Source: Eledone cirrhosa (lineage: Eukaryota). From it: DNA of 64,000 nucleotides. A model generated the notes under the pieces. The model worked only from the letters and a program-made list of their open reading frames with translations, searched no databases and had not been told where the DNA came from. The position numbers and the translations under genes are program-made. This document shows, in pieces, positions 6,527-59,208 of the stretch (positions are counted from its first letter, which is position 1; each line of letters begins with the position of its first letter). The stretch covers positions 33,046,001 through 33,110,000 of the forward strand of contig OZ024757.1 of NCBI GenBank assembly GCA_964016885.1, given 5' to 3'.

Positions 6527-6960
6527 ATAATATATAAGATCAAAAGATGGTTAAAAGAGTTCCATGTATTTTATTATGCGCATTTCAAAAACAAACATCA
6601 TCATGCAATAATATTTGTGTTTTCATCAGATAAAACAGGAGGACATGATATGAAGGCTAAAAAACACTTGTGGATAGTGCAGTTTTAAATCAACATATCA
6701 TATATGTTGATTTAAAACTGCACTATCCACAAGTGTTTTTTAGCCTTCATATCATGTCCTCCTGTTTTATCTGATGAAAACACAAATATTATTGCATGAT
6801 GATGTTTGTTTTTGAAATGCGCATAATAAAATACATGGAACTCCTTTAACCATCTTTTGATCTTATATATTATGTATACTCCAGTCCTACAAACTGTAGA
6901 GTGCTTCTTATCCGATATCTTCATTGCTTTATTGTACTACAATAAAACTCACCTCCTACA
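6527..6960 (+). mobile_element. Family B fold-back element (172-bp arms plus tail)
   Basis: Palindrome 6527-6873 centred on 6700 with one mismatch seen; tail 6874-6960; (TA)n on both sides. Confidence 0.9.
6763..6833 (+). ncRNA. Type I hammerhead motif (family B); mirror copy 6567-6637 on -
   Basis: gttttat CTGATGA [long stem II] GAAA tgcgca TA ataaaat; palindromic stem III. Confidence 0.8.
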
Positions 6961-7334
6961 TATATATATATATATATATATGTGTGTGTGTGTGTATAAT
7001 ATAATTGAATATATATACAATATTATAACTCACAATATAGCTAAATAAATTTTAATTCTGGAATCATATTGCACCTTTCCTTTTAAATTAACGTAAATAC
7101 AAGATCTTCTTCCTTTTTCTTCTTTCTTTTTCCTACACATACATTTAAATTTTGCATAGCATCTAAAATAACGGGTTTTTTTCAGCCCTATACCTCTACC
7201 TCATTTGCATACTCATCTTAATAATTTGAAATATCTGACTTTTCTTCTCTTATCCCTTCACTATCGAAGGAAAACTTGAACCATTAAGGTATCTTTTTCT
7301 TGGTTAATGTCAAAATTTATAAAACATACTTTGC

Positions 7335-7393
7335 ATTTTATCTGATGAAAGCATACCAAAGTTTTGGTACCCTTGAAATATATATAATAGAAT
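7335..7393 (+). ncRNA. Hammerhead motif (family C)
   Basis: attttat CTGATGA aag-c-ataccaaa gt tttggtac-c-ctt GAAA tatata TA atagaat. Confidence 0.78.
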
Positions 7394-7630
7394 AAATATT
7401 GTTTTAATAAATATAGTTTCCATTTATTTAATATCTATGTATATATATATATATATATATATATATATATATATATATACATACATACATATATATATAC
7501 ACACATATATATATATATTTACACACATATATATATATATTTATTAAAATAACAGATTTTAGTCTTCAAATTTATTATTATTACTATATATATATATATA
7601 TATATATATAAATACATATATATATATATA

Positions 7631-7980
7631 GAGGTGTAACACATGAGTTGTGATATATTAGTAAAAGGAAAAGGAAATGCTGACACATTTTTCCCAGTGA
7701 AAAATAGTTTAATTAGGAATAAGTATAAATTACTAATAAGTATTGGTGAGTATTCAGTTTTAGTTTTAAGTTTTTACCGGTTGCGCATTTCTAATGCTTT
7801 TCAAAAATAATTTTGAGATAGAGCGCTCGTGATGTTTGCTCTAATCCAATTAGAGGTAAAAACTTAAAACTAAAACTGAATACTCACCAATACTTATTAG
7901 TAATTTATACTTATTCCTAATTAAACTATTTTTCACTGGGAAAAATTTGTTAGCATTTTCTTTTCCTTTTACTAATATAT
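7631..7980 (-). mobile_element. Inverted-repeat element, 126-bp arms and 76-bp spacer
   Basis: 7653-7778 is complementary to 7855-7980; (TA)n flanks. Confidence 0.75.
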
Positions 7981-8979
7981 ATATATATATATATATATAT
8001 ATATACATATATATATATATATGTGTGTGTGTGTGTGTGTGTATATAGAGGGAGAGTGAGATTTTCTGTATAACTGCACTGTTTGAAATAACCACTACTG
8101 TCCATTAAGTTTATAAAATAGCAAAATAGCCCCTGCTAAATATTTTGCAGTGATCATGGGAATAGATATAAAGATGTTTATCTTAGAATTCGTCTGAAGC
8201 CCTAATGACAACAGGAAGGGACCCCCGCCTCCACCTCAACAGGATACACTGACAATAGGCCAATATTTTTGTTATCACACTCGAAAGGAAGGAAGATCTT
8301 TGCCTGAAGTACCAGGTGTTATTAATAAAAATGGTATTAATAAGACTGAGGACAAATAATAAGAGTCAGTGGCTAGGTTTTTGACTCAATGGTGTTTCCT
8401 CTTGAAATTGAAAAGAGGAAAAGAGGGTCAGTGTGTTTGTGTGTGTGTGTGAAGTGTGTATGTGGTGTGTGTGTTGGTGCGTGTGTGGTGTGTTTGTGCA
8501 CGTGATTGTCTGTCTATCTGTATATCTATCTTGCTAGCCAGCTAGTTAACTAGATAGACAGCTATGTGAGTATATAAATGCCAACTCACACACATACATA
8601 TATATATACATTGAAGGTAGGTAGCCTAGTGGTAAGGGTGTTGGACTTACGATCATAATGTCATGGGTTAGATTCCTGGGTTGTATATTGTGTTCTTGAG
8701 CAAAACACTTCATTTCACATTGCTCCAGTATACTCAGCTGAAAATGAGTACCAGCAAAAGGTGGGGGTTTAACCCTGCGATGGGCTGGTGTCCTCTCCAG
8801 GGGGAAGTCTTGTACTCTCAGTCACTTCACGTCATGAAACCAGGATAAGCACCGGCCCAATGAGCCTTCTGGCTTAAGACAGACTTTAGACTACATACAT
8901 ATATACCTACCTACATACACACACATACACATGTATGCACATACATACGAGTATATATATATATATATATATATATATA

Positions 8980-9333
8980 TCATCATCATTTCATCATTTC
9001 ATTTTACGTCCGCTTTTCTGCTTTTTCCCTGCTTGCAAGGGTGGGACGGGAACTGATTCTGGCTTGATTTCTACAGCTGGATGCCCTTCCTAACACCAAC
9101 CTCATTTACAGTGAGTGCTGGGTGCTTTTTTTCCGTGGCACCTCCACGACCACTTTGCAGTGGAATGATAGGGACCCCAGTCCCTATCAACTCATTTCTA
9201 CAGCTGAGTAAACTGGAGCAATGTGAAATAAAGTGTCTTGCTCAAGGAAACAACACATCACCCGGTCTGAGAATTGAACTCGCAACCTTTCGATTGCAAG
9301 GCCAATGCTCTAACCACTAAGCCATGTGCTTCC
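8980..9333 (-). mobile_element. SINE family 1
   Basis: Near-identical to the 25671 copy. Confidence 0.88.
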
Positions 9334-56209: not shown

Positions 56210-56560
56210 TCTATGACAGTCACAACAATATTATGACAGTCATAACTATATTGTGACAGTCATAACAGTATTATGACAGTCATCATAATGGTATTATGAC
56301 AATCATCATAATGGTATTATGACAGTCATAACTATTATGACATTCTTCAGTTTTATTTGTCTTCAGTCACAAGTATATTCTGACAGTCTTATGACAGTTT
56401 TAAATAGTCTACACAGTTTAATGCCTCTTCACAGTGTTATGACAGTCATAACAACATTATGACAACCTTCACAGTGTTATGACAGTCATAACAACATTAT
56501 GACAATATTCACGGTATTATGATAGTCTTCACAGTACTATGACAGATTTACTACAGCAGT
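56210..56560. repeat. Minisatellite, about 20-23 bp
   Basis: (ttatgacagtcataacaata)-like units. Confidence 0.8.
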
Positions 56561-56718
56561 CTTCACATGTTTCTCCCAATCTTCATTGTTTTATGAATTC
56601 TTCTAACTTCTTACAATAGATTTCATCAAAATTTTCTAACAATTTTCACAGTTTTGTAGAAAGGAAAATTCTACCTTTGGACATTGTATTAACTCATAGT
56701 TAAACATTTTATTTACAG

Positions 56719-57291
56719 AGTATTACTGTGGTGGTAAGCCGGCAGACATAGTTTTCCTGCTAGATGCCTCTGCAAGCATCTGGGGACCAGACTTTAAAAA
56801 GCAGACCAAATTTGTAGAAAATGTGGTATCGATGTTCCAAATAAGCCCTCGAATGACACAGGTGGGCGTGCTTACCTACTCCCATGCAGTCGACCTTGAG
56901 TTTCCCCTCAACAGGCACCGGACTAAACATAGTTTGGTACGGGCAATCAGGAGAATTGACCATAGGCCTGGGTTTGCAACGAACACAGCACTTGGTATCA
57001 AATACATGCGCAATCATATGTTCACAGCAAAACAGGGAGCTCGAGAAAACGTGGTGAGAGTGGCAATTGTCATGACTGATGGGAAATCTGCCAACATCCT
57101 TTTGACTTTGTGGCAAGCCACCAGAGCACGGCGTTCCTCTCACATAAACATATTTTCCATTGGGATCGGTGACGGTGTAAATATAAGAGAACTGCAAGGA
57201 ATCGCAGGAAACAAAAACCATGCTTTTACTGTAGACAATTACGCAGCACTTGATTCAATCAGAGAAATTCTTGCCATTGAAACATGTAGAG
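56719..57291 (+). CDS. VWA domain exon (matrilin / collagen VI-XII-like)
   Basis: tttacAG acceptor and G/GTAAGT donor, 573 nt, phase 1-1. Reads YYCGGKPADIVFLLDASAS...TNT...VMTDG...SIGIG...ETCR, with an intact MIDAS (DxSxS, T, D) and flanking Cys. Confidence 0.95.
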
Positions 57292-58233
57292 GTAAGTGTC
57301 AATTCTTATTTTCTTTCATTTTAATAACAAACAATTGTTTGATTATTTTTTTTAAATAAGGAAATTTTATATTTGTTTGTGTATATATATATATATAATA
57401 ATAATTGTTTCTACTTTTGGCACAAGGCCAGCAATTACCCAGTGCATTACTGGTACTTTATTTTATCGACCTCGTAAGGATGAAAGGCAAAGTTAACTTT
57501 GGCGGGATTTGAACTGAGAATGGCAAGGACCGTAACTCTATGCGTCAAAGCATGGCGTCCGACCCTCTACCAATACTGCCAATCCACTGTCCTTATATAT
57601 ATATACAATAATAATAATAATAGTAATAATTATTTCTACTTTTGGTACAAGGCCAGTAATTATCCCAGTGCATTACTGGTTCGTTATGCACTGGGATGAT
57701 AATAATAATAAACAAAAGATAGTTACTTTAGATCATCTCTATTTATTTTATTATATATATTTCAAAGATGCAAGGCTTATTTATAACATAATCGAAAACA
57801 TTTTCTCATCAGATAAAATGGATAGGAGACGCAATTTTCTTTTGATATACTAGCAGTCAGCCGAACTGGACAGATCGTTGACAACCAAGCATATTTATAG
57901 TAATATATGAGGTTATAGTGTGCTAGTTCACTATTTTCATTGGTAAGATAAGTTAAGCTCAATGCCCTCTTTTACCCTTCGTTCTTCAGGAGTGAATAGT
58001 TACAATAGCAGAGCATTTATAATTCAAAATCCAGTAAGACCAAGGATTACTATATATATATATATATATATATATATATATATATAATAAGATTAATAAA
58101 GATGCTGATGATACAAAAATCGCTTATTCATTATAATTATTTCAATGGTTCTCCCATGCAATCAAGATGTATTTTGTGCATTTGTTGTTATGAAATTCGA
58201 TTTTATATCTGGCAGCATATCACAAAATCGAAT

Positions 58234-58323
58234 TTCATCTGAGGATACCCTTCTCATAACAACAACAAATGTATGATTTACATCTTGATTGCATGGGAGA
58301 ACCATTGAAATAATTATAATGAA
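58234..58323 (+). ncRNA. Hammerhead motif with long stem II in fold-back element 58084-58460
   Basis: ttcat CTGAGGA [about 61 nt] GAAA taatta TA atgaa. Confidence 0.68.
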
Positions 58324-59208
58324 TAAACGATTTTTGTAACATCAGCATCTTTATTAATGTTGTTATTATACTGAATCTCCATCACAACTAAAAACTACGA
58401 ATGTTGAGAGTTTTCTCCTGCTTGCTCCTGTTTTTACCAAAACAACCTCTTTGGAACACAATATATATATATATATATATATATATATATATATATATAT
58501 ATATATAAAGTAGATTAAATGAGTTGATGATACAATTGTTTACATTTTTCAAATCCTTGTGTCTGGAGTCACGAAAACATGCAGTCGGTAAATAAATATC
58601 TTTTTATATTATCTAGTGATTCTGACGATTTCTCTACAAAGGAATTAAATACTACTTCCTTCTGTATTTGAATCAAACATATGTAAATCAATTAAATAAT
58701 GTATTGAACTGTGGTTATTTGTTTATTTATTCATTCATTTATATATATATATATATATATAAAACCCATGCTAGCGTGGAAGATAGACATTAAACGATGA
58801 TGATAATGATATATATATATATATATATATATACAAACAATTTATTTAAAATTTCCCATTTACATATATTTCTCATTCTTTGCTCTGTATATATGTGTTT
58901 CTCAAATGATATATGTTTTTTCTCTTTCCACATGTTTTAAACTTATATAACTGCTGCTCTGAACTAAGGTCCACTGAGCTTTTTTACTGAGAAACATGAT
59001 CATCATAGATTTAATATGTATTTATACATTAACATAGTATATATTTGAAGATGGTGATATATAATTAATTCAAGTATGTGTTAGTTAATCACCGTCGCTT
59101 CAGTATGCAGGGTAGTAGTGCACTCAACAAAGTGCACAGAGTATATATATATATATAAACCTGAAGTATAAGTCAACAGGTTAAACTTAACATTGTTTAT
59201 TCATAGTT

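Follow-up and report, generated by a model that had tools for sequence, protein, structure and literature searches.

A short inverted motif, ACTC..GAGT, recurs in a 64,000-nt stretch of the genome of Eledone cirrhosa (assembly GCA_964016885.1, contig OZ024757.1, positions 33,046,001 to 33,110,000 of the forward strand; hereafter the window). It is the first of two bulged hairpins in the leader of Hydra-clade Penelope-like elements (PLEs), and each hairpin is probably an RNA site that positions the reverse transcriptase/endonuclease (RT/EN) of the element to start copying a few bases 5' of it. The anatomy of the leader, the offset of insertion ends from the hairpins, the covariation of the inner helix and the rule that palindromic copies pair one long with one short end are established here. 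The window copies that could be assigned are stubs, that is, 5'-truncated ends of PLEs of this clade. A first-pass annotation of the window, made from the sequence alone, had described the motif as a simple 4-bp stem with a free loop, shared by unrelated families at the boundary between inverted arm and tail. The ten sites that it named are all present at their positions in the window sequence; the stem proved to be a bulged two-helix hairpin, and all the families that could be assigned are Hydra-clade PLEs. A second hairpin, which lies a little past the end of the tail and can be seen in full-length elements only, had been overlooked, and it accounts for the other insertion end.

From 5' to 3', the consensus hairpin reads RCUC, then one strand of an inner helix, a loop and the other strand of this helix, followed by a bulge of 2 nt on the 3' side whose first base is U (UN), and then by GAGY and an unpaired RC. 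The inner helix comprises 2 to 6 or more pairs and is free in sequence. Covariation was assessed in 66 hairpins (55 of metagenome families, 11 of our own) that had been selected solely on their two sequence halves; a few instances in which the 5' half was misassigned remain in the set. At inner position 1, 65 of the 66 are paired (C-G in 44, U-A in 20) against 51.6 with shuffled partners; at position 2, 50 against 28.3; and at position 3, 45 against 25.8; none of 20,000 shuffles reaches the observed counts at these three positions. Pair 4 forms in 29 hairpins against 23.8, a count reached by 1,791 of the 20,000 shuffles. At inner positions 1–3 the sense strand has 14 G-U type pairs and 5 of C-A type. 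The outer pair is G-C in 57 hairpins and A-U in 5, so that the ACTC..GAGT of the first-pass annotation represents the variant of hairpin 1 found in this genome. Upstream of the hairpin, T is found at -6 in 40 cases and A at -5 in 38, and the hairpin forms in the local fold in 63 of the 66. A search of the window with Rfam 15 gave only one tRNA-like match at gathering score, and no hammerhead or related family; other matches were rejected as microsatellite-driven microRNA noise. In two full-length leaders (L216 of family G and L252 of family K) a possible alternative conformation has the 5' arm of hairpin 1 base-paired to the 3' arm of hairpin 2, with the tail as the intervening loop.

Full-length members of families C, G, H and P were recovered by genome searches, as were members of A, B, J, K and the decayed family M (L216 and L230 for G, L251 for B, L252 for K and the decayed L254 for M). 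The proteins of eight of our families are 34–69% identical to one another, and 20–26% identical to that of L139, the sole non-Hydra PLE for which a pairwise match was returned. In a quick RT tree of our own, metagenome and non-Hydra families, built without the published Hydra references, the eight families join 48 metagenome relatives, apart from three non-Hydra families. The motif-bearing families therefore form one clade and are not unrelated. They carry an N-terminal RWK-type motif instead of GxKF/Y, which reads RWR, RWK or RWI in A, B', C, H, J and K and RWC in B, and is decayed in M. DKG is changed to DKT in A, in B' and in the A1 alignment. A CxCX5C linker is followed by a C-terminal GIY-YIG domain with CxxC and CxH, and without CCHH (B' endonuclease frame; P0001–P0004). 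A model of the family H protein, predicted with a mean local confidence (pLDDT) of 94, has telomerase RT as its top fold match; a sequence search found no PLE chain in PDB. The elements have single open reading frames (ORFs) of about 700–790 amino acids, intact for instance in L186 of family H (714 amino acids) and L208 of family C, with a tandem unit of about 3.5 kb in family G and a 3' untranslated region (UTR) of about 1.5 kb in B'; the clade has been described, in the available text of one paper, as generally short (<3 kb) with a single ORF (PMC8557442).

A canonical type I hammerhead is present in the pseudo-long terminal repeat (pLTR) of families A, B, B', C, H, J, M and P. The leaders of family G (L216, L230) contain no canonical hammerhead core. 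By eye, CUGANGA is absent from family G and a U3-A8-type core variant may replace it, both in L216 and L230 and in the window at 29335–29474 and 42753–42885; a variant of this type is described for PLEs of Schistosoma in the accessible part of PMC4209133. In family H (L186 and its relatives) a second, diverged hammerhead lies about 400–470 nt past the stop codon, with no hairpins downstream of it. The suggestion that the motif is a conserved cis element 3' of the ribozyme holds in 15 of 17 metagenome families, where the first motif lies 72–100 nt past the hammerhead core. It does not hold for every hammerhead: other hammerhead families in the sample lack the motif, and only five of the ten window sites have, by eye, a canonical core of their own directly upstream.

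The leader has the order hammerhead, hairpin 1, hairpin 2, start codon; both hairpins are found in full-length B', C, G, H and P, and in the leaders read hairpin 2 ends about 15–60 nt ahead of the start codon. For five window families (A, B, J, K and M) a second hairpin was predicted in advance to lie 5–12 nt beyond the end of the tail, and was sought with patterns free of the motif itself. It was found 8 nt beyond the tail end in family A, 6 nt beyond it in family K and, as a variant with a long loop and a 1-nt bulge, in family J. A search for inverted arms that made no use of the motif showed one arm meeting (TA)n directly and the other extending into the tail. In many families the motif starts 5–12 nt into the tail; other tailed families lack it. 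One family taken at first to have a 25-nt tail without the motif does contain it, with a long TA-like loop.

Insertion ends were mapped in 974 kb of unselected DNA, including the window, by aligning 134 copies to ten leaders. A TA or CA run adjoins 111 of the 134 copies, as expected of insertion into (TA)n. An end could be called in 111, of which 90 lie 6–9 nt 5' of a hairpin, 31 at hairpin 1 and 59 at hairpin 2; 8.3 of 111 would be expected at -9 to -6 if any TA/AT position in the leader were usable. Ends within 14 nt 5' of a hairpin make up 105 of the 111, and the other six fall 16–27 nt before hairpin 1. The modal offset is -9 to -6 in 16 of 17 family/hairpin cases, measured to the first repeat-compatible base. 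All modal junctions open with T or TA/AT, matching the register of the (TA)n target, so that the actual start could be as much as about 6 nt closer to the hairpin; the ends lie in AT-rich linkers with TA-type microhomology of 1–6 nt. Together with the arm search, this bears out the earlier observation that inverted arms stop just 5' of the motif and confirms the correlation between arm endpoints and motif that had been set as a check. An AT-rich stretch had also been proposed at the priming site; the ends do fall in such a stretch 5' of the motif, where priming would then take place. Contigs from a public sequencing run show loose TA ends just ahead of both hairpins of the family A leader, and summed depth drops about 250-fold across hairpin 2 in this run, which may be the source sample and not independent. 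The RNA runs found covered a small piece of the ORF, outside the leader.

The two classes of end are combined in a regular manner. Among 27 palindromic pairs, 24 join a long with a short end, two a long with a near-short end and one a short with a short end, and none joins two long ends. A tailed and a tail-less end are thus paired in 26 of the 27, which has a probability of about 1e-7 if ends were independent. The tail corresponds to the interval between hairpin 1 and hairpin 2, which measures 67–106 nt in our families and 55–83 nt in 13 metagenome clusters.

The twin arrangement is also found in other animals. A metagenome scan yielded 78 loci, which fall into 48 clusters. With each cluster represented by its locus richest in matches, the strict 3' half of the motif is present in 33 of 33 clusters with at least 160 nt of leader and occurs twice in 26 of them, mostly at about 93–133 and 32–69 nt before the ORF start; most of the seven single-copy clusters show a variant second copy by eye. 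As controls, the strict 3' half occurs 8 times in 73,516 nt of ORF and 7 times in 6,208 nt of leader reverse strand. Seven repeat ends that enter a microsatellite lie 2–11 nt before a hairpin in the metagenome loci, and several other alignment ends in those loci are not next to one. Among the published consensuses (PMC8557442 File S7), the motif is visible by eye in Hydra-2_Amil and Hydra-2_Ajap, and twice in Hydra-1_Ajap; Hydra-1_Crog has a variant, the Hydra-1_Amil consensus stops short of the motif, and none was seen by eye in Hydra-1_Obim. A covariance model, with five window sites in its training set and scans run with rough E-values and no reversed-sequence control, recovers all ten window sites, four more (families C and G) and four weak extras. 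Its 46 hits in 780 kb reflect the great abundance of Hydra-clade elements in a source genome of 3.0 Gb that is AT-rich and microsatellite-rich. The model gave no match in the leaders of four non-Hydra PLE families that also have tails. A scan of viral contigs found no relative.

PLEs are the closest retroelement relatives of telomerase. We know of only one full-length PLE protein that has been studied in vitro. In the available account of this element, Poseidon of Anolis carolinensis (PAc), RNA is bound near the ORF start, both DNA strands are cut and extended, and two internal start sites bound the tail (Frangieh et al. 2024, PMC11167929). The mechanism proposed here is modelled on these activities of the anole PLE. 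A tandem pLTR-ORF-pLTR transcript would carry the leader in its 3' part. The protein, perhaps as a dimer by analogy with the anole enzyme, would recognise each hairpin by its conserved outer helix, its UN bulge and its 3' RC, and its endonuclease would nick both strands of the (TA)n target. Each DNA 3' end could then anneal to the RNA immediately 5' of a hairpin, by UA-type microhomology of 1–6 nt, and prime cDNA; the cDNA begun at hairpin 2 would copy the tail, while that begun at hairpin 1 would not. Joining two 5'-truncated cDNAs head to head would produce a palindrome with a one-sided tail. The two internal starts of reverse transcription assumed in this scheme are read from the two classes of DNA ends. 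Such an account would address how PLEs pick the start of copying and why one-sided tails and inverted ends arise. A nearly invariant 25-nt motif, found twice and at a fixed distance from both ends in dozens of families, makes that question testable, and the hairpins give a simple rule for locating the true ends of Hydra-clade elements.

Several observations weigh against this role for the hairpins. DNA ends look alike whether they stem from initiation, from cutting of RNA or from trimming of DNA. Family C has a short form of hairpin 2 that lacks the UN bulge, and in B and M, each known from one full-length copy, only the 5' half lies at the predicted place. Of the 134 aligned copies, 23 offered no callable end and were left out, and one family, G, supplies 42 of the 111 ends. 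The covariation shuffles ignore relatedness. Whole leaders are no more stable than shuffled ones (z -0.1 to -1.6), the lowest-energy fold shows both hairpins in only three of seven leaders, and in two of the seven the two hairpins pair with each other instead. One-sided tails also occur in non-Hydra PLEs that lack the hairpin, which is hence not a general cause of tails.

The strongest alternative, which we nonetheless consider unlikely, is RNA processing, in which an element protein or a host nuclease cuts at a fixed distance 5' of the hairpins and the RT starts at the resulting RNA 3' ends, as in long interspersed nuclear elements. It predicts identical DNA ends, and in the anole the ends of RNA-seq reads coincide with the tail boundaries, as far as the available text of PMC11167929 reports; the same text reports that initiation in the anole is internal on uncut RNA and that a longer 3' end left the product unchanged. 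A cut at hairpin 1 would moreover strip both hairpins from the template, which fits poorly with one long and one short end. Less probable still is an effect at the DNA level, whereby the GIY-YIG endonuclease would read the motif in the cDNA or an intermediate, cut the adjoining AT-rich stretch and trim one end. The tail has been ascribed to endonuclease resolution of an intermediate in the accessible text of Craig et al. (PMC8557442), the tail of Drosophila Penelope is needed for endonuclease recognition (as summarised in part of PMC11167929), and the junction stretch is similar to the (TA)n target. Against this, the inner helix pairs despite sequence change, which argues that a folded single strand is what is read, and sense-strand G-U type pairs exceed C-A type pairs; hairpin 2 is absent from short copies yet fixes their long end, and so acts before integration.

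A role in translation or ribonucleoprotein assembly, for example after hammerhead cleavage, with the ends landing beside the hairpins only through copying that begins in unpaired AU-rich linkers, would suit the position of hairpin 2 shortly ahead of the start codon. It is an improbable explanation of the ends, whose offset stays constant within about 4 nt for both hairpins although the linkers differ between families, and which leave unused many other TA/AT positions of the leader. That the motif is an inherited, functionless sequence and the ends arise from TA microhomology alone is very improbable: all assigned families are related and each modal junction starts with T or TA/AT, yet flanking and loop sequences cannot be aligned from one family to another, whereas both halves of the motif hardly vary and its inner helix covaries, and no ends fall at longer TA runs of the leaders, for example the palindrome in helix III of the B and B' hammerheads.

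The proposed positioning of the RT/EN by the hairpins builds on a clade that is already published, as are its hammerhead, inverted structure and tail, and two internal starts. The available text on the Hydra clade (Craig et al. 2021, PMC8557442) describes RW[KR], DKT, CxCX5C and GIY-YIG with CxxC and CxH, together with a type I hammerhead in the pLTR, (TA)n insertion, tandem or inverted copies and a one-sided tail, all of them features shared by the elements studied here. It gives a tail of 30–40 bp; the tails found here are 55–106 nt long and bounded by two copies of one RNA structure. Neither 'hairpin' nor 'stem-loop' occurs in the main text of that paper. PAc resembles these elements in having two starts downstream of the hammerhead that bound the tail, an AT-rich target and a predicted dimer; its starts are at one AC-rich stem-loop inside the ORF, without homology to the target and with no duplicated signal described in the available text (PMC11167929), whereas those suggested for the Hydra-type elements would lie in AU-rich 5' UTR linkers, each 5' of its own hairpin, with 1–6 nt of TA microhomology. 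Non-LTR retrozymes (accessible parts of PMC7229834 and 10.64898/2026.07.22.740005) share with the stubs a short, non-coding repeat unit, a type I hammerhead and a relationship to PLE pLTRs. Unlike them, the stubs represent the ends of autonomous PLEs, truncated on the 5' side, often inverted and lying in (TA)n, and not head-to-tail arrays; no non-coding head-to-tail hammerhead array was present among the window repeats listed. No description of the twin hairpin was found in the literature searched, which includes the available text of PMC8557442, PMC3846280, PMC4209133, PMC7229834, PMC7761336, PMC6765202 and 10.64898/2026.07.22.740005, with subscription papers and Repbase entries outside the search.

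The resemblance to telomerase, a TERT-related RT acting on a small structured RNA element, is one of working principle only, with no sequence or Rfam match. In telomerase, RNA elements bound by TERT anchor the RT on a structured RNA and fix the position of the template. The hairpin described here differs in three ways: the first templated base lies 5' of it, it occurs in two copies, and it is part of the mRNA itself. A tentative extension, possible but open to real doubt, is that the two hairpins form a duplicated RNA 'origin': one RT/EN dimer would grip both hairpins on one transcript and prime both nicked target ends at once, one beside each, so that tail and palindrome would both result from one twin-start reaction. 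Duplicated signals of their own may also serve other PLE clades, and the 25-nt hairpin could be a portable module that lets reverse transcription begin wherever desired within an RNA. At tandem junctions of two non-Hydra PLEs on the reverse strand, identical six bases (L144) and an AC-rich heptamer (L140) follow just after both ends; these short repeats hint at clade-specific duplicated start signals.

In the window, the motif sites lie in short (TA)n-embedded elements, many palindromic and many with a minimal type I hammerhead. The bare word pair ACTC/GAGT is modestly in excess, and its positional association is strong: it occurs 43 times in the window against 13.8 expected (rank 7 of 256 four-mer pairs; mirror pair 12) and 253 times in 780 kb against 164.8 expected (rank 60; mirror pair 126). 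On the forward strand, the palindromic stub of family A (6530..6959) has inverted arms at 6530–6870, a tail at 6871–6959, (TA)n on both sides and two minimal type I hammerheads (cores at 6771 on the forward and 6629 on the reverse strand); its hairpin 1 (6878..6904, ACTC..GAGT 6878–6902) has a 4-bp inner helix and a UA bulge. Two palindromic stubs with tails belong to family C, one at 17322..17536 (hammerhead core 17405; hairpin 1 at 17471..17491, ACTC..GAGT 17471–17489) and one at 59529..59695, whose hairpin 1 (59634–59654, ACTC..GAGT 59634–59652) lies 6 nt past the arm end. The tails of the family B stub (37860..38097; hammerhead 37928–37964; hairpin 1 at 38013–38035, ACTC..GAGT 38013–38033) and of the family J stub (42414..42561; hammerhead core 42430; hairpin 1, a 1-nt bulge variant, at 42502–42523, ACTC..GAGT 42502–42521) end in (TA)n. 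A family G-like palindromic stub at 42753..42946 carries hairpin 1 at 42891–42916 (ACTC..GAGT 42891–42914).

On the reverse strand, family G is represented by a palindromic stub at 29270..29474 (arms 29335–29474), with hairpin 1 (29301–29326, ACTC..GAGT 29303–29326) 8 nt past the arm end, and by a stub with a tail at 25433..25600, its lower bound approximate, whose hairpin 1 (25513–25538, ACTC..GAGT 25515–25538) is additional to the ten sites named earlier. The family K tail spans 34246..34322, with hairpin 1 at 34285–34311 (ACTC..GAGT 34287–34311) and a 6-bp inner helix. A further candidate family has hairpin 1 at 35082..35109 (ACTC..GAGT 35084–35109), with a 5-bp inner helix and a UU bulge. 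The family M element (59062..59497, lower bound approximate), termed the '59 kb element' in the first-pass annotation, has inverted arms at 59162–59491, a hammerhead core at 59262 on the reverse strand and hairpin 1 behind an expanded TA run (59120–59142, ACTC..GAGT 59122–59142). Three family C-like stubs complete the set: a palindromic one (arms 31983–32095) with hairpin 1 at 31952..31973 (ACTC..GAGT 31954–31973), one with a decayed hairpin 1 at 48530..48561, and a palindromic one (arms 711–849) with a decayed hairpin 1 at 688..719.

Two more palindrome-plus-tail elements, at 58089–58461 and 38170–38620, have variant or decayed hairpins, and a U3-A8-type core is visible in the latter. A palindromic stub at 7659–7974 is related to the L139 family; it has a 28-nt tail, and the bulged hairpin is absent. 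L139 itself is a young, high-copy Neptune-like PLE without a canonical hammerhead, in which a 455-amino-acid upstream frame (5797–7165) overlaps a 784-amino-acid RT-EN frame (7095–9450) in another reading frame. It was the first autonomous PLE found and was rejected as the partner of the stubs, its leader having a 28-nt tail and no hairpin; L255, considered as a read-through of family M, was rejected because it is not a leader. Elsewhere on the reverse strand of the window, an open frame at 56700–57359 resembles what we take to be a host-gene exon for a von Willebrand A domain, and 33055–34110 presumably holds a broken Tc1/mariner-like transposase.

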